Below the pieces are notes generated by a model. It made no database searches and had not been told where the DNA came from. It saw nothing but the letters and a program-made list of their open reading frames with translations. A program made the translations under genes and the position numbers. 64,000 nt of DNA from an uncultured Anaerolineales bacterium (GTDB lineage Bacteria; Chloroflexota; Anaerolineae; Anaerolineales; UBA11858): contig CAYQQX010000007.1 of assembly GCA_964419495.1 (NCBI GenBank), positions 919 to 64,918 on the forward strand, given 5' to 3'. Of the stretch, positions 35,603-64,000 are shown piece by piece. Within the stretch, counting starts at the first letter, position 1; each line of letters begins with the position of its first letter.

Positions 35603-36460
35603 ATGACACGAGACCTAGTCGCGACAAAAAATAAAATCAAAACATTCAGAACACGGATCCAGCGATCAAGTGGTTGGTCTGCGCTTAATATTGTAGAGCT
35701 TTGGAAGTATCGGGATCTATTCTGGATTCTGGCAATGCGGGATGTGAAATTGCGCTATAAGCAAACCGCGCTGGGTGTCTCTTGGGTCATTATTCAGCCT
35801 ATTCTCACATCCGGTATTTTTGCTCTAATATTTGGTGTGCTGGCAGATCTGCCTTCAGATGATTCCCCATATTTGTTGTTTGCCTTTGCTGGTACTTTAC
35901 CTTGGACTTTGTTTGCTCAATCCCTCCAACGCGCCGGTAGTAGCCTGGTAGGCGGGCGGGAATTGATCGCCAAGGTTTATTTTCCTCGATTAATCTTGCC
36001 TATCGCAAGTTCCTTTTCTGTCGTCGTCGATTTTTTGGTGGGTTTGGCATCGATCAGTATATTGTTTATCATTTATAAGGTGCCCCTAACCTGGAATCTA
36101 CTGGCTATCCCAGGGTTAGTTTTAGCAAATCTTCTGATCGCCATTGGGGTGAGTTTCTGGATTTCGGCATTCAGTGTGCATTACCGAGATTTCATTTACG
36201 CGCTGCCATTTTTGGTACAGGCCTGGATGTATGCTTCCCCTGTAGCCTATGCCAGCAGCATCATACCAGACCAATGGATGGCAATTTATTCATTGAACCC
36301 AATGGTGGGGATCATCGAGGGCTTCCGTTGGGCCTTATTAGGGCAAGGTGAATTTTCCTGGATTTCCTTCGGGATATCGTTGGGGGTGGGAATCGTTGTC
36401 TTTGTATTCGGCGCTCTGGTTTTCCGCCGCATTGAGCGGGGATTTGCGGATGTGATTTGA
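35603..36460 (+). CDS. wzm: ABC-2 polysaccharide exporter permease (copy 1)
   Basis: RDVKLRYKQTALG, KVYFPR, YASPVAY, LNPMVGIIEGFR. Confidence 0.9.
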   Translation: MTRDLVATKNKIKTFRTRIQRSSGWSALNIVELWKYRDLFWILAMRDVKLRYKQTALGVSWVIIQPILTSGIFALIFGVLADLPSDDSPYLLFAFAGTLPWTLFAQSLQRAGSSLVGGRELIAKVYFPRLILPIASSFSVVVDFLVGLASISILFIIYKVPLTWNLLAIPGLVLANLLIAIGVSFWISAFSVHYRDFIYALPFLVQAWMYASPVAYASSIIPDQWMAIYSLNPMVGIIEGFRWALLGQGEFSWISFGISLGVGIVVFVFGALVFRRIERGFADVI

Positions 36461-37716
36461 TGAGAAATCAAGCAATCAGCCTTCAAAACATAAGTAAGGT
36501 GTACCGAATCGACCCGACTACGGGAGGAGTGGCTTCGAGAACCCTGCAGGAAGATCTTGTGCGTGTTGTTAAGAGTCCATTGCGCTTTGCCGCACCTTCA
36601 AAGAAACAGGAAGTATGGGCGTTAGATGATGTTTCCTTTGATGTAAATGAAGGCGAAGTCATTGGTTTGATTGGACGCAATGGGGCTGGCAAGAGTACGT
36701 TATTAAAAATCCTCTCTCGTATCACTGAGCCTACCTCAGGCTATGCTGATTTGAACGGTCGGGTGGGTGCTTTGTTAGAGGTGGGTACTGGTTTCCACAC
36801 AGAGCTGACTGGCCGAGAAAATATTTACTTGAGCGGGGCAATTTTGGGAATGAGAAGGTCAGAGATCAATCGAAAATTTGACCAAATTGTCGAATTCTCA
36901 GGCGTGAGCCAGTATATTGAGACACCCATCAAACGCTATTCAAGCGGAATGGCCGTTAGGTTGGCGTTTGCTGTCGCTGCACATCTCGAGCCAGAAATTC
37001 TGCTGGTAGATGAAGTGCTCGCGGTTGGTGATGCAGCTTTTCAGAAGAAATCTTTGGGAAAGATGTCCGAAGTTGCAGAGAGCGGCCGCACAATTATTTT
37101 TGTCAGCCACAATATGGGTGCGATAAAAAACCTTTGTACCCGCGCAGTGCTCCTTGATGATGGCAGAGTTCTGGCCGACGGTGATGTTGATGGCGTTGTC
37201 CAAGAGTATTTAGTCACTGCCAGCGAAAAAGGGGAATGGCATACAGACATTGCAAGCCGAACAGACCGGCAGGGAGATGGAAAGCTGCGTTTCACAGATT
37301 TCCAGCTATTGGGAGCAAATGGAGATGAGGTAGATGCAGCCATCGCTGGCGAATCGATTGATTTTGTGCTCCATTACCAACGCTATTCAGAGAAGATCCA
37401 GCATGGCAGAATCTATATCTGGTTGCGCGATGCATTTACGAAGGGGTTGCTCAGGTTCGGGACTGATCTTACGGGGCAGGATTTCGAGGATCTTCCCCCA
37501 GAAGGCAGAATTGTTTGTTCTGTGCCAAAATTCTCTCTACGGCCTGGACGATATTATGTTGATCTTGGAGCGGATATTGATGGAGTCAAAGCGGATAGAG
37601 TGATCCGAGCGGAGACATTGGATGTAATTGGTGGGGATTATTATGGAAGCGGCAAAGTTCCAACCCATCCTAATGATGGTGATCTATTGTGCGATCACTC
37701 ATGGAGTTTAGACTGA
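36460..37716 (+). CDS. wzt: ABC polysaccharide exporter ATPase with C-terminal Wzt_C domain (copy 1)
   Basis: GRNGAGKST, YSSGM, LLVDEVLAVGD, VSH, about 170-aa C-terminal extension. Confidence 0.92.
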   Translation: MRNQAISLQNISKVYRIDPTTGGVASRTLQEDLVRVVKSPLRFAAPSKKQEVWALDDVSFDVNEGEVIGLIGRNGAGKSTLLKILSRITEPTSGYADLNGRVGALLEVGTGFHTELTGRENIYLSGAILGMRRSEINRKFDQIVEFSGVSQYIETPIKRYSSGMAVRLAFAVAAHLEPEILLVDEVLAVGDAAFQKKSLGKMSEVAESGRTIIFVSHNMGAIKNLCTRAVLLDDGRVLADGDVDGVVQEYLVTASEKGEWHTDIASRTDRQGDGKLRFTDFQLLGANGDEVDAAIAGESIDFVLHYQRYSEKIQHGRIYIWLRDAFTKGLLRFGTDLTGQDFEDLPPEGRIVCSVPKFSLRPGRYYVDLGADIDGVKADRVIRAETLDVIGGDYYGSGKVPTHPNDGDLLCDHSWSLD

Positions 37717-37723
37717 GGGTGAG

Positions 37724-39268
37724 ATGGTAAGAGCGATCTATACGGGTTTTGGTGAAACTTTTTGGTTGCATATGGCGCAGCGATTTTCTGAAAATCATGA
37801 CTGGCAGCCAGTCTATTGGGTTGCCGATCCCCAGGTGCAAACAAATGTAGAACGAGATTATCCAGGAACAATTTTCCACTCGGTCTTTGATGCTATCAAG
37901 GGGATTCCCGCATCCGAGTACGTAAATCGTAAGCTAAAACCACTGGACGAAGAGATCCTAAAGGATAATTCCACTAGTCAATTGATATTGCTAAGGATGA
38001 TGGACCGCATCAGCGCATTGGGGTCTTTTGATTATAACGAACGCGTAAGGCTGCTTTATAAACAATTGAAATATTGGCGGGTAGTTTTAGACGATCTTCA
38101 ACCTGAAGTTGTTTTCTTTTCTGTCATCCCACACATGATCTATGATTTTGTGATCTACAAATACTGTAAACAACGTGGGATAAAGACGCTCATGTTCGAG
38201 AGTATTCCTGTCCGGGGCATGACCATTGCCATGGATGATTATTTGGCTCCGACTAGAACTGCAAGATTGTATGAGCAACTATTAAAAGATTATAGTTTAG
38301 AAGATGTCCAGTTATCAGATGGAATGGAAGAATTCTTGCATGCCTTGCAAGGTTCTTACCGCGATGCGCCCGATTATGTTCGCAGGGTCTATAAGGAAAA
38401 ACCCTATGAAGGTGTGCGTTCGTCCTCAGAAAGCATCATTCAAAAGTTACTTGATGTACAGCGCTATAAGGATTATTACGAAAAACAAAAGAAGATTTGG
38501 CTTTCTCGATTCCGCCCTCCCAAGAATTACTTAAAGCAAAAACATAAGAAGCTCGAAGATTCCAAGATGAATTGGATTGAGTATCGAATGTTTAGATTGG
38601 GATCTCATCTTAAGATGCGCAATCTGATTCGGTATTATCACCGATTGGCTGGGGAAGTGGATTTTGAGAAGCCTTACATCTATGTAGCTTTGAGTTTTCA
38701 GCCTGAGCGCACGACATCGCCCATGGGCTCTTTCTATGTTGAGCAGTTGTTGATGGTGGATTTGCTTTCCAAAGTTGTCCCTGATGGATGGCAAATTTAT
38801 GTAAAGGATCATCCTTTTGGATTTTCTCCATCGAAATTTCATCGGGCGCAGAGTGGTCGTTCCCGAGATCTTTATGATGATATTTCAAGCATACCTAATG
38901 TAACTCTGGTACCCATGCCGATAAACTCCTATGATTTAATTGATGGTTCCAAGGCAGTAGCTGCTGTAACTGGAACCGTGGGTTGGGAATCATTGCATCG
39001 AGGTAAACCCGTGCTTTTGTTCGGATATCCCTGGTATCGAGGGTGTGAGGGCACATTTAAGATTGATACTTTAGAGAGTTGCATAGACGCAATTAATACA
39101 ATTCGTGATGGTTATGAAGTTGATCATAAAAAACTGCGACTATTTGCTTATGCTCTTGAGCAGACAGCAATCTATGCCTCAGTTGAACCCCATTTGCGGA
39201 TTGAAGCAATTTCTGATGAAGAAGCGGCGACTCGACTTGTGCGAGGCATCGAACCATTGCTGTCTTAG
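37724..39268 (+). CDS. KpsS/capsule-synthesis-like GT-B protein, candidate nonulosonate transferase
   Basis: YVALSFQPERTT, YVKDHP, TGTVGWES..RGKPVLLFG; directly upstream of neuB/C/A. Confidence 0.65.
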   Translation: MVRAIYTGFGETFWLHMAQRFSENHDWQPVYWVADPQVQTNVERDYPGTIFHSVFDAIKGIPASEYVNRKLKPLDEEILKDNSTSQLILLRMMDRISALGSFDYNERVRLLYKQLKYWRVVLDDLQPEVVFFSVIPHMIYDFVIYKYCKQRGIKTLMFESIPVRGMTIAMDDYLAPTRTARLYEQLLKDYSLEDVQLSDGMEEFLHALQGSYRDAPDYVRRVYKEKPYEGVRSSSESIIQKLLDVQRYKDYYEKQKKIWLSRFRPPKNYLKQKHKKLEDSKMNWIEYRMFRLGSHLKMRNLIRYYHRLAGEVDFEKPYIYVALSFQPERTTSPMGSFYVEQLLMVDLLSKVVPDGWQIYVKDHPFGFSPSKFHRAQSGRSRDLYDDISSIPNVTLVPMPINSYDLIDGSKAVAAVTGTVGWESLHRGKPVLLFGYPWYRGCEGTFKIDTLESCIDAINTIRDGYEVDHKKLRLFAYALEQTAIYASVEPHLRIEAISDEEAATRLVRGIEPLLS

Positions 39269-39274
39269 GAATTT

Positions 39275-40300
39275 ATGACAAAAAATATCTCATCCGAGAA
39301 AAAATCAACATTTATCATTGCCGAAGTCGGTTCAGTCCATGATGGTAGTTTCGGTAATGCCAAGAAGTTAATCGAAGCTGCGGCAGGCTGCGGGGTCGAC
39401 GCGGTTAAATTCCAAACGCATATCCCCGAGGCCGAGACCTTGCCTGATGCACCCATGCCCCCGTACTTCAAAGGGGAACCAAGATTCGAATACTTTCAGC
39501 GAACTGGCTTTTCCTTAGAACAATGGCAGAAATTGAAAAGTCATTGTGATCTTAATGATGTAATTTTTCTTTCATCGCCGTTTTCCGAAGAGGCAGTTGA
39601 CTTGTTGGAATTAGTGGGTATGCTCCAATTTAAGATCCCCTCGGGCGAAGTGACCAACTTGCCAATGCTGGAAAAGATTGCTCGACTTGGGACACCAGTT
39701 ATCCTCTCTTCGGGCATGAGCGCTTGGGATGAGTTAGACAGCGCGGTGGAAGTCATCAAAAAACATAATGAAAAACTGACTGTGCTCCAGTGTACCAGTG
39801 AATATCCCTGCCCCTATGAGCAAGTTGGACTCAATGTCATGCTTGAAATGGCAGAGCGCTATCAGGTTCCTATAGGTCTCTCAGATCATACACTGACAAA
39901 TTACGCGGTTTTTGCGGCTGTGACGTTGGGAGCATCAGTGATCGAGAAGCATTTTACTTTTAGCCGCAGGATGTATGGAAGCGACGCGCCTCATTCACTT
40001 GAACCAAGAGAGATGACTGACCTTGTAAATGGTGTGCGTGCCATTGAAGCCATGTTGACTAACCCTGTGGAAAAGGATCATGTTGATCCATACACTGGGA
40101 TGAAACGAATTTTTGAAAAAAGTCTGGTAGCAAAAGTTGATATTCCAGCAGGAACACTACTCACCCGCGAATTGATTGGAATCAAGAAACCGGGCACGGG
40201 GATTTCTGCAGCGCGATTAGGCGAATTTTTGGGAAAAAAAGTGTCTAAGGATATTTGCGCGGGAGCAATTTTTGCAGAAGATGATTTTATTGAAGAATAG
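39275..40300 (+). CDS. neuB: Nonulosonic acid synthase, NeuB family, with SAF domain (copy 1)
   Basis: IIAEVGSVHDG, AVKFQT, FKIPSGE, LSSGMS, QCTSEYP, GLSDHT, IEKHFT, KKPGTG. Confidence 0.9.
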   Translation: MTKNISSEKKSTFIIAEVGSVHDGSFGNAKKLIEAAAGCGVDAVKFQTHIPEAETLPDAPMPPYFKGEPRFEYFQRTGFSLEQWQKLKSHCDLNDVIFLSSPFSEEAVDLLELVGMLQFKIPSGEVTNLPMLEKIARLGTPVILSSGMSAWDELDSAVEVIKKHNEKLTVLQCTSEYPCPYEQVGLNVMLEMAERYQVPIGLSDHTLTNYAVFAAVTLGASVIEKHFTFSRRMYGSDAPHSLEPREMTDLVNGVRAIEAMLTNPVEKDHVDPYTGMKRIFEKSLVAKVDIPAGTLLTRELIGIKKPGTGISAARLGEFLGKKVSKDICAGAIFAEDDFIEE

Positions 40301-40309
40301 ATTGCAAAT

Positions 40310-41464
40310 ATGAGAAAAGTTTGTGTAGTTGTTGGTTCGCGAGCAAATTACAGCAGTATCAAAAGTGTAATGCATGCAGTGCAGGATCACCCTGAATTGC
40401 AGTTGCAGGTTGTTGCCGGTGCTTCCGCTCTATTGGATCGTTTTGGCGCGGTAGTTGAGACGGTTGAAGCAGATGGCTTTACCCCAGATGCCAGAGTTCT
40501 TATGATCATCGAGGGTGAGACACCTACAACGATGGCAAAATCTACAGGATTGGGTTTATTAGAACTGCCGACTGTGTTCGATAACCTCCAGCCCGATGTT
40601 GTTGTAACTGTAGGTGATCGCTTCGAAACTATGGCTACGGCTATAGCCGCAGCATATATGAATATACCTCTAGCCCACACAATGGGTGGTGAAATTTCAG
40701 GGACGATCGATGAGAATATTCGTCACGCTGTCACAAAACTATCTCACATCCATTTTCCTGCCAATCAGGGTGCAGCCGAACGCATCATTCGCATGGGGGA
40801 AGACCCTTCGGTAGTTCATGTGGTGGGTTGTCCACGAATCGATTTGGTCGCTGAGATTGCTGATGAGAACCATCGTTTACCTGAACGTGCCTGGCTGGAG
40901 TATGAAGGTGTTGGCGGTCAAATAAATCTCGAAGACCCCTTTTTATTGGTTTCACAGCATCCAGTGACAACCGAGTATGGTGATGGCGAACACCAAATCA
41001 CTGAAACGTTAATGGCTTTACACGAATTGCAGATGCCGACAATTATGCTATGGCCAAACGTGGATGCAGGGTCTGAAGATATTGCTCGAGGGATGCGAAA
41101 ATTCCGCGAGCATTATGATCACGATTACATCCGTTTCTACAAAAATTTCTCTGTCGAAACATATGTGAGATTGATGAAGCGTTGTGCCTGCAAAATTGGC
41201 AACTCTAGTGCCTCGATACGTGAAGGCCCATTTTTGGGAATGCCTGCAGTGAATATCGGTACTCGCCAAATTGATCGTGAACGAGGAGCCAATGTCTTTG
41301 ATGTAGATTATGATCGCGGTCAAATCGTTAATGCTGTAAGAGAACAAGTTCAGCACGGTTCTTATCCATCCGAATCAATTTATGGGGATGGCCATGCTGG
41401 AAAACGCATTGCAGATATCTTGGCTGTTGCCGATTTCAATATTCACAAACGGATGTCATACTAG
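40310..41464 (+). CDS. neuC: Hydrolysing UDP-N-acetylglucosamine 2-epimerase, NeuC/LegG family
   Basis: VGSRANY, GDRFE, GGEISGTIDENIRHAVTKL, QHPVTTE, WPNVDAG, IGNSS, NIGTRQ. Confidence 0.9.
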   Translation: MRKVCVVVGSRANYSSIKSVMHAVQDHPELQLQVVAGASALLDRFGAVVETVEADGFTPDARVLMIIEGETPTTMAKSTGLGLLELPTVFDNLQPDVVVTVGDRFETMATAIAAAYMNIPLAHTMGGEISGTIDENIRHAVTKLSHIHFPANQGAAERIIRMGEDPSVVHVVGCPRIDLVAEIADENHRLPERAWLEYEGVGGQINLEDPFLLVSQHPVTTEYGDGEHQITETLMALHELQMPTIMLWPNVDAGSEDIARGMRKFREHYDHDYIRFYKNFSVETYVRLMKRCACKIGNSSASIREGPFLGMPAVNIGTRQIDRERGANVFDVDYDRGQIVNAVREQVQHGSYPSESIYGDGHAGKRIADILAVADFNIHKRMSY

Positions 41465-41466
41465 CT

Positions 41467-42174
41467 GTGAATGTACTTGGCCTGATACCCGCGCGCGGGG
41501 GTTCTAAAGCGATAAACAAGAAGAATATCGCACACCTTGCTGGGAAACCTTTGTTGGCATATACCTGTGAGGCTGCTTTGTCTTCTTTGCGGTTATCGCG
41601 CGTAGTTCTCAATACAGATGATCCAGAGATAGCGGATGTCGGGCGAGCGTGGGGGGTGGATACTCCCTTCATGCGACCTGCTGATTTAGCTAAAGATGAT
41701 ACGCCAATTCTTCCAGTGATCCAGCATTCGCTTGCTTGGTTGCAGAAGCAGCAAAAATTCCTCGTTGATATCGTCGTTTTGTTGCAGCCCACTTCGCCAC
41801 TGCGTAGAGCGGATCATATTGATACTGCTGTAGATTTACTTTTAGAGTCTGGTGCAGACACAGTTGTCTCTGTAATGGCTGTGCCCCATAACTTCAACCC
41901 GGTTTCGGTGATGCACCTCGATGAGCAGGGTTATCTGGCACCTTTTGAGGCCGGCCCGATGATCCTCAGGCGTCAGGAAAAGCCCCGAGTTTTTGCCCGC
42001 AACGGTCCGGCTGTATTGGCTGTGCGACGAGAAACCATCGAAAGCGGCAGGCTCTATGGTGATGTTGTGCTCCCCTTGGAGATGGGTCGTATCGAATCGA
42101 TAGATATTGACGATGCTGATGATATGGCAATGGCTGAGTTTTGGCTGAAGCGTATGATGAAAAGTAATTTATGA
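41467..42174 (+). CDS. neuA: CMP-nonulosonate synthetase (acylneuraminate cytidylyltransferase)
   Basis: IPARGGSK, KNI, GKPLL, LLQPTSPLR, RQE, SIDIDDADD; GTG start. Confidence 0.9.
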   Translation: MNVLGLIPARGGSKAINKKNIAHLAGKPLLAYTCEAALSSLRLSRVVLNTDDPEIADVGRAWGVDTPFMRPADLAKDDTPILPVIQHSLAWLQKQQKFLVDIVVLLQPTSPLRRADHIDTAVDLLLESGADTVVSVMAVPHNFNPVSVMHLDEQGYLAPFEAGPMILRRQEKPRVFARNGPAVLAVRRETIESGRLYGDVVLPLEMGRIESIDIDDADDMAMAEFWLKRMMKSNL

Positions 42175-43496
42175 AAAAAGTTGACATCATATATTTTGTT
42201 GAGCATGTTGCTCGCGAGTTAGACATTGCTTGTGCAGTCAAAGCACTCTTGGAAATAAACACAGATGTTTCTTTGAAGATTGCTTCGATAGCTCATGGGC
42301 TGGAAGATGTGCTTGACATATACCAACCCAATGTTGTCGCTTTGCCCTATTGTGTCGCTCTACATGAAGCTGGCCTGGATAATATTGTGAAACGCTGGCC
42401 TAAAGCAAAATATATAAATCTTGCATATGAACAAGTTTTAGGAAAAGCCCAAAAAAATCTAAATTCTCCCAAGGATGATTTTGCACGCGAGTATGTCGTG
42501 CATCACGCCTGGGGTGATTTTTTCGCAAAATACCTGCATACTAACAATGTGCCAAAACAGCATGTTGTAGTCAATGGCAATCCATCCTATTCTTTGTATC
42601 AATATCCGTACAAGAAGTATTATGAAGACCAACGTCTAGAACTAGCAAATAAATTTGGGCTGGATCCCGATAAACGCTGGGTCTTCATTCCCGAAAACTA
42701 CGGGTGGGCATTTTTCCATGACCATATGGTGCGTGCTCGTATCCGAAGGGGATTTGATCCTGAACAGGCATACCAATATCGTGATTTCTCACGCCAGTCG
42801 CTTTATAAATCGACGCAGTGGTGGCTTAGCGCTTCAGATATTGATTCGATTGAATTGATCATCAGGCCGCGCCCTGCAATTCCGACTGAGCGTTTTATGG
42901 AAACGGTTATTGAGATGGCAGATAACACGCTCGAGAAAGTGCACTTTATTAAATATGGCACTGTTCGAGAGTGGATTCTCGCCAGTGATATGGTAATCTC
43001 GAATTTCAGCACAACGCTGCTCGAAGCCGCGGTTGCTCAAAAGCCGATTTATATGCAAGCCCCAATTCCTTTTCCAGAATTCCTCGAAGCCGATTGGTAC
43101 GAGATGGTCGAAAAAATTACATCTTCAGAATCTTTCAATGCAATTGTTACTCAGCAAAGGTTCACAGAGAATTGGAAGGGTTTGGAAAGCTGGGTAATAA
43201 ATTCAATGATAAGTCGTGGTGATGCTATTTCCGGTTTAGTAAATATGCTGGTTTCTGTGCTTGATGGGGAATTATTTACGCCTAGAGCATTAGAAATTGT
43301 TAGTCAAATAAATAGTTTTAGTTTCAAGAATGTCAAAAGATCTCTCAGGAAGCATGGTTGGAATCTATTTCAATCGGGCTTGGATTTTCTGGGAATTCAG
43401 TCAAAAAGCCAAAATTGGACACTTCATGAAGATGACCTTGTGTCAACAGAAGCTATTGACTTGCGTGTAAGGCGATGGAAGGAGTTATTAAGTTGA
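42171..43496 (+). CDS. Surface-carbohydrate biosynthesis protein (GT-B-like), second candidate nonulosonate transferase
   Basis: EHVARELD N-terminus, NGNP, IIRPRP, SNFSTTLLEAA..KP; coupled to neuA. Confidence 0.5.
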   Translation: MKKVDIIYFVEHVARELDIACAVKALLEINTDVSLKIASIAHGLEDVLDIYQPNVVALPYCVALHEAGLDNIVKRWPKAKYINLAYEQVLGKAQKNLNSPKDDFAREYVVHHAWGDFFAKYLHTNNVPKQHVVVNGNPSYSLYQYPYKKYYEDQRLELANKFGLDPDKRWVFIPENYGWAFFHDHMVRARIRRGFDPEQAYQYRDFSRQSLYKSTQWWLSASDIDSIELIIRPRPAIPTERFMETVIEMADNTLEKVHFIKYGTVREWILASDMVISNFSTTLLEAAVAQKPIYMQAPIPFPEFLEADWYEMVEKITSSESFNAIVTQQRFTENWKGLESWVINSMISRGDAISGLVNMLVSVLDGELFTPRALEIVSQINSFSFKNVKRSLRKHGWNLFQSGLDFLGIQSKSQNWTLHEDDLVSTEAIDLRVRRWKELLS

Positions 43497-43503
43497 GGAA
43501 TTT

Positions 43504-44439: not shown

Positions 44440-44442
44440 TTT

Positions 44443-49820: not shown

Positions 49821-49840
49821 TAGGATTAGAGCAAACAAAT

Positions 49841-50765: not shown

Positions 50766-50769
50766 TTGT

Positions 50770-53332: not shown

Positions 53333-53370
53333 TCAGTGACTGAATTTTAGAAAAGATTTTGGATTCTGAT

Positions 53371-54863: not shown

Positions 54864-54878
54864 AATAAGGAAGAAAAA

Positions 54879-55946: not shown

Positions 55947-56923
55947 TCATGGACGAAAAAATGTTCCCAAACCCAGAAGAGTTCTGGGCAGATCGACGAG
56001 TGTGCGTAACTGGCGGTGCTGGTTTCCTGGGCTCTTTCGTTCAAGAAGTTCTCCAAGAACGCGGCGCATCAGATATCTTCATTCCGAAAATCGAAAACTA
56101 TGATCTGACGAAATTGGAAGATATCCAAAGTATGATAGAAGATGCCAATCCCAATATAATCATTCATTTGGCAGCCCTGGCTGGCGGGATTGGTGCTAAC
56201 CGTGCACGCCCGGCCGAGTTTTTTTATAAAAACTTAATGATGGGCGTCCCCTTGATGCACGAAGCCTGGAAATCTGGCGTCGAGAAATTTGTTGCCATTG
56301 GCACGATCTGCGCCTACCCCAAATTTACACCCGTTCCTTTCAAAGAAGAGAATTTGTGGGATGGCTACCCCGAGGAAACCAATGCTCCGTATGGGTTGGC
56401 AAAGAAGATGCTTCTTGTTCAGGCACAGGCTTATCGCGAGCAATATGATTTCAATGCAGTATATTTGCTTCCAGTTAACTTGTATGGCCCGCGCGATAAT
56501 TTCAATCTAGAAACTTCTCATGTTATTCCAGCTTTGGTCCGCAAGATGATTGCCGCTCAACAGCGCGGCGATGCTGAAGTCGTGCTTTGGGGAGACGGCT
56601 CTCCGACGCGCGAATTTTTCTATGCGGGTGATGCTGCGCGTGGTATTGTGATGGCTGCCGAACGTTATAATAGTTCTGAGCCGGTCAATTTGGGCGCTGG
56701 TATGGAAATTAGCATCAAAGATTTGGCAGCGCTGGTGGCAAAATTAACTGGGTTCGAAGGCGAGATTGTTTGGGATACCAGCAAACCCAATGGTCAACCC
56801 CGTCGAGGCCTGGATGTAAAACGTGCAAAAGAATCCTTCGGCTTCGAAGCGCAAATGCCATTTGAAGATGGATTGCGCCGCACCATTGAGTGGTTCAAAG
56901 AAAATCAGGATCGGATACCCTGA
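55943..56923 (+). CDS. fcl: GDP-L-fucose synthase
   Basis: [54 protein letters not shown]; follows gmd. Confidence 0.92.
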
Positions 56924-56943: not shown

Positions 56944-57801
56944 ATGATTGAAACTCCATTGACGACAAAAGATATTCCAGAAACGATCCTATTACGTCCA
57001 ACGCGCGGTTGGTCGGCTCTAAACTTGAAGGATCTCTGGCGCTATCGCGAGTTGATTTTCTTCTTAACCTGGAGAGATATCAAAGTCCGTTATAAGCAAA
57101 CTGTTTTGGGTATGGCCTGGGCGATCATTCGTCCAGTGATATCTATGATCGTATACTCGCTGATCTTTGGCCAGCTGGCCAATCTTGATTCAGAGGGTGT
57201 TCCTTATACGATCTTTACTTTCGTGGCATTATTGCCATGGCAGTTATTCTCCAAGGCTATGAATGATACCGGGCGCTCTATGGTATCGAATCGCAATATG
57301 ATAACCAAGGTGTATTTCCCACGATTGGTGATCCCTATTTCGACTGTCCTTAGCGGTCTGGTTGATTTTTTGATTGCGTTCGTGATCTTGATTGGCATGA
57401 TGATCTATTACGATATTTCGGTGACATCAGCCATTTGGACATTGCCGCTTTTCTTGTTACTGACATTGATATCAGCTTTGGGCGTTGGCTTATGGTTTTC
57501 TTCCCTGAATGTTCTCTATCGGGATGTTGGCTATATGCTGCCCTTCCTGACAGAGATGTGGAAGTATCTCACACCCGTTGCCTATTCCGCACAGTATGTT
57601 ACTGGTTCTTGGAAAATCATCTACTCGCTTAACCCGATGGCTGGGGTTGTACAGGGTTTCCGTTGGGCATTGCTTGGCATTGAGTTGGATTCTACGGCAA
57701 CTTTGACAATGTCGATTTCAATTGGTGTATCAATTTTGGTATTGATCAGTGGTTTGTTCTATTTCCGACGTATGGAACGCACCTTTGCGGATATGGTTTG
57801 A
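56944..57801 (+). CDS. wzm: ABC-2 polysaccharide exporter permease (copy 2)
   Basis: RDIKVRYKQTVLG, KVYFPR, YLTPVAY, LNPMAGVVQGFR. Confidence 0.9.
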   Translation: MIETPLTTKDIPETILLRPTRGWSALNLKDLWRYRELIFFLTWRDIKVRYKQTVLGMAWAIIRPVISMIVYSLIFGQLANLDSEGVPYTIFTFVALLPWQLFSKAMNDTGRSMVSNRNMITKVYFPRLVIPISTVLSGLVDFLIAFVILIGMMIYYDISVTSAIWTLPLFLLLTLISALGVGLWFSSLNVLYRDVGYMLPFLTEMWKYLTPVAYSAQYVTGSWKIIYSLNPMAGVVQGFRWALLGIELDSTATLTMSISIGVSILVLISGLFYFRRMERTFADMV

Positions 57802-57857: not shown

Positions 57858-59186
57858 ATGAATTCATCTATTCCGTCTCCTGTCCTCAGTCGTCCCTCGC
57901 CGGATGGCCTAGCCATCCGAGTTGAAAATCTCGGCAAACAATATCGCATCGGATTAGCCCCGGAGAAATACCAAACATTGAGGGATTCTATAGTCAATGT
58001 GGTTACCTGGCCGATTCAACGCATCCGGCGTGGATTGGCTCCTTCAGGTGAAGATCATTTGGATACGATCTGGGCTCTTCGTGATGTCTCATTCAATGTG
58101 GAACAGGGCCAAATTTTAGGGGTGATTGGCCGCAATGGAGCTGGAAAAAGCACCTTGCTCAAAGTGTTGTCTCGAGTTACAGAACCGACCGAAGGTGAAG
58201 TTGAGATTCGCGGTCGAGTTGGTTCTCTTCTGGAAGTGGGTACAGGTTTTCATCCAGAGTTGACTGGTAGAGAAAACATATATCTAAACGGCGCTATCTT
58301 GGGAATGAAGCGTACCGAGATCGATATCAAATTCGATGAAATTGTAGATTTTTCTGGGGTAGAAAAGTTCATCGATACGCCAGTTAAGCGCTATTCTAGC
58401 GGCATGTATCTGCGCTTAGCCTTTGCCGTTGCAGCCCACTTGGAACCCGAAATCTTAGTTGTAGATGAGGTGTTGGCCGTTGGTGATGCTGAATTTCAGC
58501 GCAAATGTCTTGGCAAAATGAGCGATGTAGCCCAAGAGGGCCGTACCGTTTTGTTTGTGAGTCATGATATGTCGTCGATCTTGCGGTTAACGGAAGAAGC
58601 CATCGTTCTGGACAAAGGCCAAATTGTATACCGAGCTCCAACAGTTGAAGCCGTTGATTATTATATGGTGTCAGGTTTTTCAGAAGCAGGCGAACGCATT
58701 TGGGATGCTGATGAAATCCCTGATGCTTCAAAACCATTTAAACCCATGGCACTGCGCGTGCGTAACGCCAGCGGAAACAATGTTGACGTGGTCCGCTCGA
58801 CAGAGGCAATCACCCTCGAGGTTGAATATTCTTTAGATCAACCCATCCAAGGGTTGCGTGTTGGTCTCTACTTGATGAGCGCGCGTGGTGAATACGTCAT
58901 GACCACCTTCGACACTGATGAACCTGATCAATATGATAAATTCGGTGTACGACCCGCAGGGCACTTTGTCAGCAGCTGCACTATCCCTGCTGATCTGCTC
59001 AACGAAGGGCGTTATACGGTTGGGATGAATGCCAGCTCATTTCGTGTCAAACGCTATTTTATGGATGAGCGAGCGTTGACGTTCACCGTTGATGGCATGG
59101 GTGCACCTGGGAAACAATGGTCTGAAACCCGTATGGGATTAGTGAGACCGCGGCTATCTTGGCAAATCAGATCGGTTGGAAAATAG
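57858..59186 (+). CDS. wzt: ABC polysaccharide exporter ATPase with C-terminal Wzt_C domain (copy 2)
   Basis: GRNGAGKST, YSSGM, LVVDEVLAVGD, VSH, C-terminal extension. Confidence 0.92.
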   Translation: MNSSIPSPVLSRPSPDGLAIRVENLGKQYRIGLAPEKYQTLRDSIVNVVTWPIQRIRRGLAPSGEDHLDTIWALRDVSFNVEQGQILGVIGRNGAGKSTLLKVLSRVTEPTEGEVEIRGRVGSLLEVGTGFHPELTGRENIYLNGAILGMKRTEIDIKFDEIVDFSGVEKFIDTPVKRYSSGMYLRLAFAVAAHLEPEILVVDEVLAVGDAEFQRKCLGKMSDVAQEGRTVLFVSHDMSSILRLTEEAIVLDKGQIVYRAPTVEAVDYYMVSGFSEAGERIWDADEIPDASKPFKPMALRVRNASGNNVDVVRSTEAITLEVEYSLDQPIQGLRVGLYLMSARGEYVMTTFDTDEPDQYDKFGVRPAGHFVSSCTIPADLLNEGRYTVGMNASSFRVKRYFMDERALTFTVDGMGAPGKQWSETRMGLVRPRLSWQIRSVGK

Positions 59187-59188
59187 CA

Positions 59189-60778
59189 ATGCTTTCAAAT
59201 GACAAGATTAAGAACATCCTTGGTGAAATTCCACTGACTGCCGAATTGGTCTGGTTGATGCGTCAAAGTGGGTCCCCTCCTGTGGGAGGATATCATCTCG
59301 ATAGGGTTATCGAAAATCTTCCACTTTGGCTCTCACAAGCGAAAGCAGCTTCTCGAAAAATTGACAATCCCAAGAACATCCTGATTTTTAGTATGCTCAG
59401 TTATTGGATTGAACACAGCCTGTTGATGGCGCTGACCTTCGCGGCTTTGGGGCACGATGTCACCCTGGCATATTTGCCCTATTCCCAATGGAAAAAACCG
59501 ATCAATCGTTTTGACCTGCGCAGACAAAATATCTATATTCAAGAAACACTGAAACCAGCAGAATCATTTATCAAAATAGTGCCCTTTTTGGACGCGTCCT
59601 TGTCTAATTCATTGCCCTCTGATTTGGAAAAGAAAATGGAATCGGCTGCGTTTCGTGATACGCAATACAGCCAACTTCGGGAAGATGTGGATACAGATAG
59701 TGATTTGTATCGTTTAAGAATGGAGCGCAATCGAATCCATGCCAGGAGAATGCTAGCACACATTGAAAAAGATCGACCAGACGTTGTGGTGGTACCCAAT
59801 GGCAGTATCCTGGAATTTGGTATCACTTATCACGTGGCACGCTCATCGCATGTGTCAGTCATGTCGTTTGAATTTGGCGAGCAGAATGACCGCATGTGGC
59901 TGGCACAAAATGATGATGTTATGCGTCAGGATACGAGCAAGTTGTGGGATGCTAAGAAAAGTGTTCCACTTTCTGAAGATGAGTGGGGAAGAGTCAAAGA
60001 TTTCTTTGCTGCACGTCAAAAGGGTGATCTTTGGGAAACCTTCGTGCGACTTTGGCAGGAAACACCTGTTCAATTGGGGGGCGATGTTCGACAGGAATTG
60101 GGACTTGATTCTCGCCCCGTGGTTTTTCTTCCCACCAATGTGCTCGGAGATAGCCTAACCCTCGGGAGGCAACTCTTCAGTGAAAGCATGACTGAATGGC
60201 TGAAGAAGACAATCGAATACTTCATCCAACGCCACGATGTCCAATTTGTAATCAAAACGCATCCTGGAGAACTTATTGGCTGGGGTCCGGCCGTTTATGA
60301 TATTTTGAATAATATGTTCCCTGAGTTACCCGAACATATCCATCTTTTGGCAGCGGATGCCAAGATCAATGCCTACGATTTGGTGCATATGGCCGATGTG
60401 GGTCTTGTTTTTACGACAACCATGGGTATGGAGATGGCAATGAGCGGGTTGCCGGTTATCGTAACAGGCCAGACGCATTATCGGGATAAAGGTTTTACTT
60501 TGGACCCAGATTCGTGGGACTCATTTTTCGAGATTCTCCAGCGGGTGTTGGAAAATCCAGAAAAGCACCGACCAACTCGGGCTCAGGTTGAATCTGCCTG
60601 GACATATGCATATCGCTTCTTCTTTGAATATCCCCAGCCCTATCCATGGCATGTGCAATATTTTGAAGAAGATATTAGCCGTTGGCCATTAGAAAAGGTT
60701 TTATCGGAAGAAGGGTTATCGAAATTTGGTGCCTCCTTTGAATATTTGCTTGGAAAACCCATGAAATGGGATTTGTAA
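59189..60778 (+). CDS. KpsS/capsule-synthesis-like GT-B protein, candidate nonulosonate transferase
   Basis: FLPTNVLGDS, FVIKTHPGE, TTTMGMEMAMSGLPVIV..HY..KGFT; start ATG 59189. Confidence 0.6.
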   Translation: MLSNDKIKNILGEIPLTAELVWLMRQSGSPPVGGYHLDRVIENLPLWLSQAKAASRKIDNPKNILIFSMLSYWIEHSLLMALTFAALGHDVTLAYLPYSQWKKPINRFDLRRQNIYIQETLKPAESFIKIVPFLDASLSNSLPSDLEKKMESAAFRDTQYSQLREDVDTDSDLYRLRMERNRIHARRMLAHIEKDRPDVVVVPNGSILEFGITYHVARSSHVSVMSFEFGEQNDRMWLAQNDDVMRQDTSKLWDAKKSVPLSEDEWGRVKDFFAARQKGDLWETFVRLWQETPVQLGGDVRQELGLDSRPVVFLPTNVLGDSLTLGRQLFSESMTEWLKKTIEYFIQRHDVQFVIKTHPGELIGWGPAVYDILNNMFPELPEHIHLLAADAKINAYDLVHMADVGLVFTTTMGMEMAMSGLPVIVTGQTHYRDKGFTLDPDSWDSFFEILQRVLENPEKHRPTRAQVESAWTYAYRFFFEYPQPYPWHVQYFEEDISRWPLEKVLSEEGLSKFGASFEYLLGKPMKWDL

Positions 60779-60779: not shown

Positions 60780-61646
60780 ATGACATCAGAATTAGAAATT
60801 AAACAGAATGTACGGGAATTCTATGATCAGGTGGGCTGGCAAGAGGTCAGCGAGGGGATTTATCAGAACGCGCGTTATGAAGATTTACGGCCGGTATCAC
60901 GTGAATATATCCATCGTTGTCATCTAAGAGTATTGCGCCATTTGGAGTCTGAGGGCAAGTACTTACTGGACGCAGGCAGCGGACCTATCCAATATCCTGA
61001 ATATTTGGAATATTCTAAGGGATATGATTTCCGTGTATGCGTCGATATCTCCCACGTGGCATTGAAAGATGCTTGCAAACGCACTGGTGAGCATGGCCTA
61101 TGTGTTGTTGCCGATGTTGCAAACCTTCCTTTCAAGCCGGGTGTATTTGAAGGCCTTGTCTCATTGCATACTATTCACCATTTACCTTCTGACGAGCATG
61201 TCCCGGCATACCAGGAGTTGTACCGCGTTCTGGCTAAAGAATGCCAGGCGGTTATTGTCAATGGTTGGGGTGAGGCCTTAATCCCTCAAATTTTAGCTTC
61301 CCCAATGCGCTGGACTAATCGGATCATAGGTATTTTACGCAGGATATTTGGTGTTGCACCACCAGTGCACCCAGCAAAACCTAAGAAAGATTCCGATGAA
61401 AACAAACCCAAAAGTACCTTTGTTCGCAAGTATGGCGCTGAATGGCTTAAAAGCCAATTATCCCCTTTGATGCCGTTTGAGATTTTTGTCTGGCGTGGAG
61501 TTGGCGTAAAGCATTTGCGTACTTTTATACATAAAGGATTTGGCGGACGCATCTTATTGCGTTTGTTGTTTTGGCTAGAAGATATGTTTCCGCATTTCTT
61601 TGGTGAGAATGGTCAATACCCGATGTTTGTCATCCGAAAATCCTAA
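60780..61646 (+). CDS. Class I SAM-dependent methyltransferase
   Basis: LLDAGSG, VCVDIS, ADVANLPF, SLHTIHH. Confidence 0.85.
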   Translation: MTSELEIKQNVREFYDQVGWQEVSEGIYQNARYEDLRPVSREYIHRCHLRVLRHLESEGKYLLDAGSGPIQYPEYLEYSKGYDFRVCVDISHVALKDACKRTGEHGLCVVADVANLPFKPGVFEGLVSLHTIHHLPSDEHVPAYQELYRVLAKECQAVIVNGWGEALIPQILASPMRWTNRIIGILRRIFGVAPPVHPAKPKKDSDENKPKSTFVRKYGAEWLKSQLSPLMPFEIFVWRGVGVKHLRTFIHKGFGGRILLRLLFWLEDMFPHFFGENGQYPMFVIRKS

Positions 61647-61677: not shown

Positions 61678-62685
61678 ATGAACTGGAAAGATAAAGTTGT
61701 CTTAGTTACCGGAGGTACCGGTTCTTTTGGAAAAAAATTCACCAGAGTTTTGCTAGATGAGTTTCAGCCAGCTAAACTGATTGTGTTTAGCCGTGATGAA
61801 CTGAAACAGCATGAAATGCGGGTGGCAGGTTTCGATCACCCCAATTTGCGCTATTTTATTGGCGATGTGCGTGATCTAGAACGTCTCAAACGAGCGATGC
61901 AATCTGTGGATATTGTGGTACATGCGGCTGCTCTCAAGCAGGTTCCAGCGTGCGAATATAATCCCATGGAAGCAGTAAAAACAAATATCCTTGGCAGCAG
62001 CAATGTGGTCGATGCCGCCTTAGATACTGGTGTCAAAAAAGTGTTGGCTCTAAGTACAGATAAAGCTGTGAATCCAGTAAATTTGTACGGAGCCACAAAA
62101 CTCGCCGCCGAAAAGCTGGTCATCCAAAGCAATGCCTATGCCGGGAAGTACGAAACTCGGTTGAGCTGCGTTCGTTATGGTAATGTTGTTGGCAGCCGCG
62201 GTAGCGTGGTCCCCGTGTTCCTACGTCAACGAGAAAATGGCCAACTGACCATTACCGATAAACGGATGACACGCTTCTGGCTCTCCTTAGAGCAGGGTGT
62301 TCGCTTTGTGATCAAAAATATTGAAAACATGCAGGGTGGTGAAGTCTTCGTGCCAAAAATCCCTAGTATGAAAGTTGTTGATTTAGCGAAAGCCATGGCT
62401 CCAGATGCGGAATTAGATTTTATTGGCATTCGCCCAGGCGAGAAGCTGCATGAGATGTTGATTTCACGGGATGAGTCTCGCACTACCATTGAGCTAGATG
62501 ATATGTTCGTTGTCCAACCAGCAGAAGCCTTCTGGTTTGGTGGTGGCTGGAAAGAGAAAGGAGAACCTGTTTCCGATGGTTTCCGTTATTCCAGCGCAGA
62601 AAATCCGGTATGGCTCGATGTTGAACAAATTGGTGAAATTGTAAAACCTTTTGAAGATGCATACGCCCAAGGGAATCTGACTTGA
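61678..62685 (+). CDS. pseB: UDP-N-acetylglucosamine 4,6-dehydratase (C5-inverting)
   Basis: TGGTGSFG, FSRDELKQ, HAAALKQVPACEYNP, LSTDKAVNPVNLYGATK, RYGNVVGSRGSV, RMTRFW, GGEVFVPKIPSM. Confidence 0.9.
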   Translation: MNWKDKVVLVTGGTGSFGKKFTRVLLDEFQPAKLIVFSRDELKQHEMRVAGFDHPNLRYFIGDVRDLERLKRAMQSVDIVVHAAALKQVPACEYNPMEAVKTNILGSSNVVDAALDTGVKKVLALSTDKAVNPVNLYGATKLAAEKLVIQSNAYAGKYETRLSCVRYGNVVGSRGSVVPVFLRQRENGQLTITDKRMTRFWLSLEQGVRFVIKNIENMQGGEVFVPKIPSMKVVDLAKAMAPDAELDFIGIRPGEKLHEMLISRDESRTTIELDDMFVVQPAEAFWFGGGWKEKGEPVSDGFRYSSAENPVWLDVEQIGEIVKPFEDAYAQGNLT

Positions 62686-62747: not shown

Positions 62748-62751
62748 GACA

Positions 62752-63672
62752 ATGCGAATACTGATAACTGGTACGGGTGGTTTACTGGGGAGTAATCTGG
62801 CCTTAGAAGCTGCCAGTACCCACACTGTTTTCGGAGTTGACCGCAGTTGTTCTCAGAAAACAGAGGCCTTCACTCCAATTGTGGCCGATTTGTTAGACCC
62901 GGGTGCCGTGGAACGTATCCTTGATGATACTCAACCAGATTGGGTGATCCACTGTGCCGCACAGGCAAATGTAGATGCATGCGAGGACGATCCGGAAGCT
63001 GCCCGGGAATTGAATACAGAAGTACCACGAAAACTGGCACAGCATGTCGCCAGGGGCGGAGCGCGCCTGCTGCATGTTTCGACTGATGCAGTATTCGACG
63101 GTCAAGATGGGAATTATGCTGAGACTGACGTGCCAATTCCAATCAATGTCTATGCACAAACAAAGCTAGATGGGGAGAATGCCGTCCTCGCTGAGGCATC
63201 TAATGCCATTGTAGCTCGCATCAATATGTTTGGATGGAGCCCCACTGGCAAACGAAGTCTAGCAGAATTCTTCTATAACAATCTACGAGATGGCAATCAG
63301 GTAAAGGGTTTTACAGATGTTTATTTTTGTCCCTTGTTGGTAAATGACCTCGCGGGTATCTTTTATCAGATGTTAGAGAAGGGGCTCAATGGACTTTATC
63401 ATGTGGTTAGTAGTGAGAATATCAACAAATACGATTTTGGGGTCGCGATTGCTAATCGATTTGGCTTTGACACTCAACTTATTACACCCATATCCGTCAC
63501 ACAATCTGGGCTCAAGGCTGTTCGTTCTCCACAGCTAACGCTAAAAGTTGACAAACTTATCCACGATTTGGGGATCGTTCCTCCGGGTTTATCCCCAGCT
63601 ATAGATCGCTTTTATTCACTTTATCAACAGGGTTATCCACAAGTTATTCAGTCATTGTGTATTAATTATTGA
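62752..63672 (+). CDS. RmlD-like NAD(P)H-dependent 4-keto-sugar reductase (SDR)
   Basis: ITGTGGLLG, HCAAQANVDACE, HVSTDAVFDG, PINVYAQTK. Confidence 0.82.
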   Translation: MRILITGTGGLLGSNLALEAASTHTVFGVDRSCSQKTEAFTPIVADLLDPGAVERILDDTQPDWVIHCAAQANVDACEDDPEAARELNTEVPRKLAQHVARGGARLLHVSTDAVFDGQDGNYAETDVPIPINVYAQTKLDGENAVLAEASNAIVARINMFGWSPTGKRSLAEFFYNNLRDGNQVKGFTDVYFCPLLVNDLAGIFYQMLEKGLNGLYHVVSSENINKYDFGVAIANRFGFDTQLITPISVTQSGLKAVRSPQLTLKVDKLIHDLGIVPPGLSPAIDRFYSLYQQGYPQVIQSLCINY

Positions 63673-63777
63673 TGGTATGCAACCTAAAGAGAATCTGCCT
63701 GGAAATAGGGGGTCGGGGAGAATTCTCCCCGACCCCCTATTTCCAGGGAAACCTCACTACGTGTGCGTAACATGAGT
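63669..63777 (+). repeat. Conserved structured intergenic element, copy 3 (perfect 50-bp central palindrome)
   Basis: Same left and right blocks as copies 1 and 2; 63698-63747 is a perfect palindrome centred on GAATTC; its TTGA overlaps the upstream stop codon. Confidence 0.92.
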
Positions 63778-63839
63778 TTGTTAGCTATGCAGCAGCATAA
63801 GGATCAATCGTATTCCTAATCGAAGGCAGAGGTGTAACC

Positions 63840-64000
63840 ATGAATATCCCTTCTCCAGAAATTACAATTGCTGATCGAAAAGTCGGTCTAAATTACCCCA
63901 CATATTTTATTGCTGATATTGCCGCTAACCATGATGGTGATCTTGAGCGAGCCAAAATGCTCATTCTCCTTGCAAAAGATGCCGGCGCTGAAGCGGCTAA
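63840..64000 (+). CDS. neuB: Second NeuB-family nonulosonic acid synthase, 5' part (runs off the right edge)
   Basis: MNIPSPEITIADRKVGLNYPTYFIADIAANHDGDLERAKMLILLAKDAGAEAAK, the typical NeuB N-terminus; GAGG upstream. Confidence 0.85.
   Translation, partial: MNIPSPEITIADRKVGLNYPTYFIADIAANHDGDLERAKMLILLAKDAGAEAA

Follow-up and report, generated by a model that had tools for sequence, protein, structure and literature searches.

The 64,000-nucleotide stretch of DNA analysed here (the window; positions 919 to 64,918 of contig CAYQQX010000007.1, assembly GCA_964419495.1, from an uncultured Anaerolineales bacterium of the phylum Chloroflexota) contains two gene modules, each combining a Wzm-Wzt exporter of the ATP-binding cassette (ABC) type with a KpsS-like glycosyltransferase and with genes for the synthesis of a NeuB-type acidic sugar, or nonulosonate. 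We consider it highly probable that the modules serve two separate exported glycans, both containing an ulosonate, and the overall explanation that we prefer, with a little more confidence than doubt, is that of two independent ABC transporter-dependent lines in which an ulosonate cap is read by Wzt. The cap-and-read mechanism taken by itself is put forward tentatively, as something short of an even proposition. In this explanation NeuC, NeuB and NeuA of module 1 would make a CMP-activated NeuB-type acid, most economically N-acetylneuraminic acid (Neu5Ac), and PseB, a 4-reductase, a divergent NeuB and a KdsB-like cytidylyltransferase of module 2 would make a CMP-ulosonate without amination. 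The KpsS-like enzyme, with a GT-B-like fold, would transfer the acid onto a glycan built at the inner membrane face by neighbouring glycosyltransferases of families GT2 and GT4, and the Wzm-Wzt pump of each module would export the finished chain. The acidic sugar would thereby form a cap at the non-reducing end, stopping chain growth and licensing export via the C-terminal domain of Wzt. The scheme starts from observed gene content, homologies, folds and conservation of gene order, and we infer from these which donor sugars are used, that they act as caps, that the carrier is a polyprenol and what finally accepts the chain.

Module 1 (35603-48242) begins with wzm-1 (35603-36460), encoding an ABC-2 permease (PF01061 ABC2_membrane, 65 bits; five hydrophobic windows), and wzt-1 (36457-37716), the product of which joins an ATPase domain (ABC_tran, 80 bits) to a C-terminal carbohydrate-binding domain (Wzt_C, 43.8 bits, cut-off 30.4). 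These are followed by the gene for KpsS-like transferase 1, a candidate CMP-nonulosonate transferase of 514 amino acids (aa) related to families GT107 and GT118 (37724-39268; PF05159 Capsule_synth, 32 bits, cut-off 20), by neuB-1 (39275-40300), neuC (40310-41464) and a neuA-like gene (41467-42174), and by a gene for a second candidate nonulosonate transferase of 441 aa (42171-43496; hereafter 42171). The module is completed by a GT2 (43504-44439) and a GT4 (44443-45624), both assigned with Pfam, and by an 873-aa polytopic membrane protein resembling GT-C enzymes (45621-48242; PMT_2, 20 bits, below cut-off; about 16 hydrophobic windows), which is kept after the GT4 in relatives. The Pfam scan covered open reading frames (ORFs) of at least 100 aa on the plus strand between 30000 and 64000, of at least 120 aa on the same strand between 1 and 30000, and those of the minus strand before 10500, short ORFs nested antisense to called genes lying outside it.

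The core of module 2 consists of wzm-2 (56944-57801; PF01061, 63.5 bits), wzt-2 (57858-59186; ABC_tran, 80 bits; Wzt_C, 34.3 bits, cut-off 30.4), with a different C-terminal carbohydrate-binding domain, and the gene for KpsS-like transferase 2, a 529-aa remote relative of GT107 and GT118 (59189-60778; PF05159, 19.1 bits, below the cut-off of 20). Downstream lie genes for an S-adenosylmethionine (SAM) methyltransferase (60780-61646; Methyltransf_11, 47 bits), present in most of the longer loci printed, a PseB-type inverting UDP-GlcNAc 4,6-dehydratase (61678-62685; TIGR03589, 495 bits, cut-off 407.75) and an RmlD-like 4-keto reductase (62752-63672, its start taken from contig L001; RmlD_sub_bind, 206 bits; TIGR01214, 187 bits, below the cut-off of 224), and the first 53 codons of neuB-2 (63840-64000), which leaves the window and encodes 360 aa on identical contigs. 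An earlier note on this DNA, made from the sequence alone, had listed the genes of 35603-64000, and all those it named are found in place on the plus strand; the order wzm-wzt-KpsS-like-neuB-neuC-neuA-42171 which it gave for module 1 is borne out. For module 2 its gene list also stands, but not its limits, given that the unit begins with a MarR-type regulator gene with a winged helix-turn-helix (53359-53850, plus strand; HTH_24, 53 bits) and extends about 8 kb past the window. Between this regulator and wzm-2 are genes for an epimerase/dehydratase of the short-chain dehydrogenase/reductase (SDR) superfamily, Gmd and an Fcl-like protein (53853-56923, plus strand; Gmd TIGR01472, 507 bits, cut-off 415; Fcl, 294 bits, below the cut-off of 500), for the supply of a GDP-6-deoxyhexose. 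The part beyond the window was read from contigs with an identical PseB and the same gene calls throughout, and it encodes the remainder of NeuB2, a GT4, a methyltransferase, an AAC(3)-like acetyltransferase, a DUF4910/M28-like protein, a KdsB-like cytidylyltransferase and a 295-aa unknown protein, for which a PDB sequence search returned no match.

The claim that each module has its own exporter is upheld by ABC2_membrane, ABC_tran and Wzt_C matches in both. Wzt_C lies above its gathering score in both Wzt proteins, marking an O-polysaccharide-type exporter with a binding domain, and both align beyond the ATPase domain to the full-length Wzt of Aquifex aeolicus (8dku, 228 bits), which is the best PDB match of Wzt-1 (aligned over aa 50-368). 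These carbohydrate-binding domains had been overlooked in the earlier reading, and they suggest a more specific mechanism. Between modules the identities are 44% for Wzm, 48% for Wzt, 29% for NeuB and, over 112 aa around the HP motif, 22% for the transferases; a recent tandem duplication is ruled out by these values (22-48%), and sequence comparison makes the twin modules old paralogues or analogues, anciently diverged. Within Wzt, the ATPase domains are 65% identical and the C-terminal carbohydrate-binding domains 28%, and the biosynthetic pathways differ as well (NeuC/NeuB/NeuA versus PseB/reductase/divergent NeuB). Due to the low identities and the divergent Wzt C-terminal domains, the modules are likely to represent two functionally parallel systems with different specificities.

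The two KpsS-like proteins are probably ulosonate transferases, as judged from profiles and structural models. The CMP-ulosonic-acid transferases KpsS and KpsC (GT107), WbbB (GT99) and KpsS1 (GT118), the last of which uses pseudaminic acid (Pse), belong to a single structural group (PMC12887879). The earlier note had stated that KpsS-type proteins use CMP-activated ulosonic acids, including Pse in the case of KpsS1. The PF05159 match in transferase 1 spans aa 350-440 only, and some close homologues of transferase 2 carry a precomputed PF05159 label. A 29-sequence profile of the family of transferase 1 (family 1) found KpsC as the sole PDB sequence match (E 4.6e-10), in the C-terminal nucleotide-binding stretch, and the profile of family 2 likewise matched KpsC alone, at a marginal E of 0.019; aligned with each other by hhalign, both families reached 93.8% probability over 85 columns. 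The KpsC alignment runs over the TGTVGWE...KPVL.FG.PWY stretch, which is the C-terminal nucleotide-binding motif. AlphaFold (AF2) models of transferases 1 and 2, with pLDDT values of 86.8 and 84.3, respectively, are both GT-B-like, with best target-normalised TM-scores to KpsC and WbbB (0.49 to KpsC, 6mgd, and 0.37 to WbbB for transferase 1; 0.52 to KpsC, 8fux, and 0.47 to WbbB for transferase 2); the Foldseek E-values range from 1e-5 to 1e-7 for all, and general GT-B proteins give similar E-values. A non-glycosyltransferase fold would have contradicted the earlier note, and neither protein is modelled with one. Each protein has a single HP motif, as previously claimed (H363-P364 and H358-P359, respectively), which is invariant in both close alignments, and in family 2 the whole of HPGE 358-361 is invariant. 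Both also have, where a strand of the N-domain ends, an invariant [F/Y]-E, which corresponds by motif only to the YE reported as general base in KpsS1 and KrkA (PMC12887879). Neither protein has a hydrophobic segment, and for this reason both are expected to be cytoplasmic. Family 2 is large, with 3,729 representatives of 50% clusters at E <= 0.001, and no curated model captures it.

These transferases are found next to nonulosonate genes in many genomes. In a scan based on an alignment of 10 closer sequences, family 1 homologues adjoin NeuB or PseB genes in 22 of 24 genome loci, from Chloroflexota (including Anaerolineales), Fraserbacteria and Patescibacteria. In a distant relative (locus L005), a Wzt and a family 1 protein are encoded upstream of a complete canonical PseB/C/F/G-H/I set, which indicates that the transferase family travels with whichever nonulosonate pathway is present. 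The synteny check suggested by the earlier note gave a positive answer for both modules: the order wzm-wzt-transferase-neuB-neuC-neuA-42171-GT2-GT4 is found in eight Anaerolineales genomes as far as the contigs reach (L009 ends after neuC), the GT2-GT4 order being kept in seven loci (L006-L008, L010, L012, L014 and L017), and for module 2 the testable cases among 80 metagenome loci show wzt directly upstream of the transferase gene in 50 of 52, a following pseB in 40 of 43 and a following neuB in 20 of 23. The latter unit regularly starts with MarR-SDR-(Gmd)-Fcl, MarR being the first gene in the majority of the listed loci above 9 kb whose sequence reaches this point, and it is more conserved in order than module 1. 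Gene order and sequence are kept at 50-94% identity in many genomes and habitats, and assembly GCA_028278545.1 has both modules with the same 21.4 kb spacing and a differing middle segment. As a separate observation, a haloarchaeal homologue of transferase 1 (32% identity) occurs in a nonulosonate cluster of Halostagnicola sp. (L112, JASJOC010000002.1, 1805-11491), together with two dehydratase-type SDRs, a DegT protein, NeuB, an acetyltransferase, a cytidylyltransferase and a weak GT52/polysialyltransferase-like protein, and with no Wzm/Wzt.

A cap model of the WbbB kind is favoured because both Wzt proteins carry divergent binding domains and because the transferase gene abuts wzt. In Raoultella terrigena the terminal beta-Kdo (3-deoxy-D-manno-oct-2-ulosonic acid) added by WbbB ends elongation of the O-chain and enables its export (PMC12887879), and Wzt carbohydrate-binding domains recognise the modified chain end (PMC9445017). 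Here, 3-8 nt separate the wzt stop from the transferase start in both modules, and when orthologues of module 1 are compared, divergence of the Wzt C-terminal domain goes along with that of the transferase rather than with that of NeuC or of the ATPase domain; for L012 and L014 the identities are 91% for NeuC, 83% for the ATPase domain, 50% for the Wzt C-terminal domain and 41-42% for the transferase.

Several observations nevertheless weigh against this explanation. The co-variation in module 1 could result from one recombination tract over two adjacent genes, with some two to three independent allele groups. In module 2, co-variation of the Wzt C-terminal domain with the transferase was tested and is absent (rho 0.16, n=35); it is with PseB that this domain co-varies (rho 0.63), and in locus L040 it is 90% identical when the transferase is only 60% identical. 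The Wzt of module 2 may read the sugar itself or another mark, such as methylation by the conserved methyltransferase. The window yielded no initiating phosphoglycosyltransferase, no Wzy_C-type ligase and no LCP ligase, no UDP-sugar hydrolase of the PseG or NeuC type was recognised in module 2, and the two candidate nonulosonate transferases of module 1 would be equally consistent with a cap, a polymer or a di-nonulosonate. Finally, matching RNA was found in one of three metatranscriptomes (seawater), as nine identical short contigs for module 2 and three for module 1; this support is weak, DNA carry-over being possible for 12 short contigs.

Some of these points lead to the alternative that survives best, although we regard it as rather unlikely, in which the acidic sugars are units of the chain, repeated on their own or in alternation with a 6-deoxyhexose, the KpsS-like enzymes are polymerases (with 42171 in module 1 and with the GT4 in module 2), and the end signal is a methyl group or none at all. 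The module 2 core, with only two glycosyltransferases (KpsS-like 2 and the GT4) and a conserved methyltransferase, would suit such a polymer, and so would the presence of two candidate nonulosonate transferases in module 1 and a module 2 Wzt C-terminal domain that does not follow the transferase allele. There are also precedents: the O-antigen of Legionella pneumophila serogroup 1 is a homopolymer of legionaminic acid specified by a locus with Wzm/Wzt, which the authors name as its ABC transporter (PMC3766260), and KrkA and KpsC polymerise Kdo-containing chains (PMC12887879). However, the tight pairing of wzt with the transferase gene and the co-variation in module 1 fit a cap better, the GT2 and GT4 of module 1 are able to build a neutral backbone, and the best-studied Wzt proteins with a binding domain go with end-capped chains.

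The second candidate transferase of module 1, protein 42171, has no Pfam match and resembles, over aa 7-330, two NCBIfam models below their cut-offs, TIGR04396 at 77.8 bits (cut-off 125) and BFO_1060 at 54.5 bits (cut-off 200); it lacks an HP motif, RPRP being invariant in its place, and it follows neuA in every Anaerolineales locus reaching that far. Many of its homologues carry the JGI label 'surface carbohydrate biosynthesis protein'. A PDB sequence search gave no match and hhalign gave only 6.7% and 21% probability against the two KpsS-like families, to which no relation is therefore shown. In Tannerella forsythia, where the two proteins are Pse/Leg (pseudaminic or legionaminic acid) transferases, the BFO_1060 orthologue Tanf_01245 is needed to add the terminal Pse to the O-glycan (PMC5420450). 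Protein 42171 shares with this enzyme its length class (441 versus 445 aa), the match to the NCBIfam model of the family over most of its length and the location directly after the CMP-nonulosonate genes; it differs in its low score (54.5 versus 200) and in having RP instead of HP, and the T. forsythia enzyme finishes a protein O-glycan, no Wzm/Wzt being described in that work.

With regard to the sugars that the capping enzymes would use, module 1 looks like a Neu5Ac-type route. NeuC, a hydrolysing UDP-GlcNAc 2-epimerase, passes its curated model (TIGR03568, 393 bits, cut-off 235.9). The nonulosonate synthase NeuB-1 (PF03102, 263 bits) reaches 361 bits with TIGR03569, below the cut-off of 399.65, and its best PDB match is NeuB of Neisseria meningitidis (181 bits, versus 160 bits for PseI). 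The NeuA-like CMP-nonulosonate synthetase (CTP_transf_3, 72 bits) matches only PseF among the curated models, below cut-off (142 bits, cut-off 205.7). Neither a dehydratase nor an aminotransferase (DegT) is found in module 1 or its orthologues, and since a 2-epimerase, a meningococcal-like NeuB and a cytidylyltransferase occur without them, CMP-Neu5Ac would be the most economical product. Legionaminic acid was also considered and is unlikely, as no dehydratase, aminotransferase or acetyltransferase accompanies neuB-neuC-neuA in any Anaerolineales locus.

The pathway of module 2 is less conventional. NeuB2 is equidistant from NeuB, PseI and SpsE, scoring 242 bits with the NeuB model and 222 bits with the PseI model (cut-off 340), both below cut-off, and the cytidylyltransferase prefers the KdsB models (95 bits) to PseF (28 bits, cut-off 206). 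Neither DegT nor Glyco_tran_28_C was found in the Pfam-annotated gene calls of the window, the 10 kb downstream, L004 or L110. The other module 2 loci were screened by tblastn with the window proteins; their pseB-reductase-neuB2 order is uninterrupted, and no PseC, PseG or PseH is present in any orthologous locus reaching far enough downstream. A canonical Pse pathway is ruled out by the absence of these three enzymes and by PseI and PseF scores below cut-off. Consequently, the two nonulosonate routes of the earlier note are retained insofar as each module has a distinct NeuB-type pathway, but the pseudaminic type is not retained for module 2. Its product is possibly a 5-acetamido-7-hydroxy-9-deoxy nonulosonate made by an amination-free route, in which PseB, a 4-reduction and condensation with phosphoenolpyruvate would yield a 5-acetamido-7-hydroxy-3,5,9-trideoxy acid of about 293 Da. 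In a competing view, which we deem unlikely, PseB and the reductase would provide a UDP-6-deoxy-L-hexosamine for the backbone, and NeuB2 and the KdsB-like enzyme would make a Kdn-like acid from a common hexose phosphate. Pairs of a PseB-like dehydratase and an RmlD-like reductase do make UDP-L-RhaNAc-type sugars in O-antigen loci, and the absence of an aminotransferase, PseG and PseH from every orthologous locus, the equidistant NeuB2 and the KdsB-like cytidylyltransferase are all in accordance with such a division. However, it would leave three donors (GDP-6-deoxyhexose, UDP-6-deoxyhexosamine and CMP-ulosonate) for two conserved glycosyltransferases, the contiguity and co-conservation of pseB-reductase-neuB2 speak against it, and no phosphatase for the Kdn-9-phosphate route was recognised. 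Because there are only two conserved glycosyltransferases for the donors, synthesis of a nonulosonate by PseB, the reductase and NeuB2 is slightly favoured over a backbone-sugar role of the first two. An AAC(3)-like N-acetyltransferase and a DUF4910/DUF2172/M28-like protein (L001, 15581-17664; L021, 15056-17200) constitute an optional insert of module 2, are also encoded beside a family 1 transferase and PseB in a genome of Patescibacteria, and may represent a de-N-acylase/N-acyltransferase pair remodelling the sugar.

A bolder proposal, about which we are doubtful, is that module 2 is a Chloroflexota-wide operon for a major envelope polymer with an undescribed amination-free nonulosonate, ordered MarR-SDR-(Gmd)-Fcl-Wzm-Wzt-transferase-methyltransferase-PseB-reductase-NeuB-GT4-cytidylyltransferase-unknown, and that a transferase hot spot diversifies the surface. 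If true, its polymer would possibly be part of undefined outer layers or of a sheath. The position of transferase 2 is, by alignment of close relatives (L040, 10001-12614, and also L042, L046 and L053), a hot spot of allelic cassette replacement, with flanks 84-93% identical and a KpsS-like 2 only about 60% identical. In L040 an extra 334-aa sulfotransferase (Sulfotransfer_3, 111 bits), identified by ORF listing and Pfam, follows KpsS-like 2, and the other three loci have a gap of about 1 kb at the same position.

The place where the KpsS-like enzymes act is also open to another, quite improbable, interpretation, according to which they operate at the reducing end and add the first ulosonic acid to a membrane lipid as primer or anchor. 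Their sole family-level homology is of the KpsS/KpsC type (PF05159), the window yielded no polyprenol-phosphate initiating transferase, and anchorage by a lipid would be appropriate for a cell that has no outer membrane. Nevertheless, the exporters are Wzm/Wzt with Wzt_C and not KpsMT (28 bits with the KpsM model, cut-off 300), no KpsC-like extender and no KpsE/KpsD were found, and family 1 homologues occur in archaeal and Patescibacteria clusters without an ABC exporter, which fits a general glycan-decorating transferase. The scanned ORFs of the window include no match to the Poly_export/Wza, Wzz/KpsE, lipopolysaccharide (LPS) or BAM families, and thus no outer-membrane or periplasm-spanning export genes of the KpsD/KpsE/Wza type, as the earlier note had reported; the lipid linkage and the destination that it proposed for the glycans are conjectural, no initiating transferase or ligase having been found in the window. 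That one or both modules are decaying or silent remnants is scarcely credible, because in spite of a GT2 between them frameshifted at a G6 run and of thin RNA support, the module genes are all intact and tightly packed, and their order and sequence are 50-94% identical across genomes, with identical copies on at least 24 contigs.

Chloroflexota are commonly considered to have neither an outer membrane nor LPS. The phylum is abundant in oceans, sediments and bioreactors. The assignment of the DNA to it is supported by the closest named relatives of the three candidate transferases, which belong to metagenome-assembled genomes of Anaerolineales and other Chloroflexota, with at most 76% identity in GTDB representatives; matching DNA comes from marine and seawater metagenomes. 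Tomography has described Chloroflexota envelopes as multilayered and chemically undefined, with outer layers only suggested to be polysaccharide or protein (bioRxiv 10.1101/2025.08.19.671072). In the literature searched there is no characterised system of this kind from Chloroflexota, as the earlier note had supposed, and no study of nonulosonates in the phylum.

The favoured cap-and-export explanation has its closest model in WbbB and the Wzm/Wzt exporter of R. terrigena, which share with the modules an ABC-dependent assembly, a Wzt with a C-terminal carbohydrate-binding domain and a CMP-ulosonic-acid transferase of the same structural superfamily, WbbB being among the top TM matches of both models. 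In contrast to that system, the donor here would be a NeuB-type nine-carbon sugar and not Kdo, the transferases are stand-alone proteins of 514-529 aa instead of forming the N-terminal part of a polymerase that has several domains and a coiled-coil ruler, the host is probably devoid of both LPS and outer membrane, and the cap role is putative. A beta-Kdo cap added by WbbB is also read for export in Klebsiella pneumoniae O12. KpsS1 of Acinetobacter baumannii (GT118), a retaining Pse5Ac7Ac transferase compared here by description only, is likewise KpsS-related and encoded with a nonulosonate pathway, but it serves a Wzy-dependent capsule of a diderm and the donor sugars differ. KpsS and KpsC of group 2 capsules (GT107) have the HP motif and the C-terminal nucleotide-binding motif in common with our proteins and are their sole sequence-detectable homologues of solved structure; the similarity nonetheless covers only some 65-130 residues, with N-terminal halves unrelated by sequence, and the neighbours here are NeuB-type synthases and Wzm/Wzt, no Kdo genes, KpsMT or KpsE/KpsD being present. 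In S-layer glycan biosynthesis of Geobacillus and Aneurinibacillus, which are monoderm, Wzm/Wzt exports a polyprenol-linked chain with an O-methyl cap at its non-reducing end; those loci encode a Wzy_C-type oligosaccharyl:protein transferase (WsaB) and no nonulosonate is involved, whereas a WsaB-type transferase was not found here. The O-antigen locus of L. pneumophila serogroup 1 resembles ours in having a nonulosonate polysaccharide, Wzm/Wzt and neuA/B/C-type genes (PMC3766260), but its product is a diderm LPS O-antigen homopolymer and no KpsS-like transferase is noted there.

All parts of the modules are of known kinds. What is new is that a Wzt binding domain is combined with a putative nonulosonate transferase, KpsS-like and stand-alone, and that this pairing is found twice in a phylum considered devoid of an outer membrane; the PseB route without amination and the breadth of family 2 are new as well. 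The conserved, exporter-linked gene set provides concrete candidates for the envelope chemistry of Chloroflexota, and the superfamily of KpsS, KpsC, WbbB and KpsS1 would be extended to monoderm lineages (Chloroflexota and Patescibacteria) and to archaea. The natural pair of Wzt binding domains and transferases offers a test case for chain-end recognition in export control, and the amination-free PseB route may give a new sialic-acid-like sugar.

The modules are part of a plus-strand cell-surface glycan island which runs from about 14.8 kb to past the right end of the window, with housekeeping genes (UvrD, TsaE, holB) to its left. The variable segment between them (48330-53141, plus strand; Pfam and NCBIfam) encodes a B12-binding radical SAM methyltransferase, a GT2, a SAM methyltransferase and an FAD oxidoreductase, and other genes take its place in the relative locus L110. 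The radical SAM enzyme (48330-49820) is closest, below threshold, to the Sden_1168 family of P-methyltransferases and may methylate a sugar at carbon or phosphorus. The GT2 (49841-50765), of the polyprenol-phosphate glycosyltransferase type with a hydrophobic C-terminal tail, consists of two overlapping ORFs due to a frameshift at a G6 run near 50161-50166, and is a single intact frame in the relative locus L030 (882-1775); the split could reflect an error in sequencing, decay into a pseudogene or phase variation at this tract. The GT2 and the 873-aa GT-C-like protein may jointly constitute a system for extracytoplasmic side-chain glycosylation.

The left part of the island (14848-35452) contains a third route, of the Wzx type. 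It encodes a Polysacc_synt flippase (17221-18633), two PMT_2 GT-C proteins (at 19769 and 22382), two LPG_synthase_TM proteins on either side of a GT2 (27159-30183) and an AsnB-like amidotransferase (33533-35452), as well as Ugd, an SDR, GT4 enzymes, a second Gmd, a type I phosphodiesterase and a 687-aa unknown protein; the latter, a 505-aa protein and a downstream 695-aa protein had no Pfam match. Scans for promoters and terminators were overall not above chance level, the top sigma-70-like match of the region lying just 5' of the MarR gene (53305-53332). The 168-nt spacer between the reductase gene and neuB-2 contains a perfect palindrome of 25+25 nt with no loop (63698-63747), unique in the window and with no T-run after it, which could be an operator, an RNA hairpin or a small mobile element.

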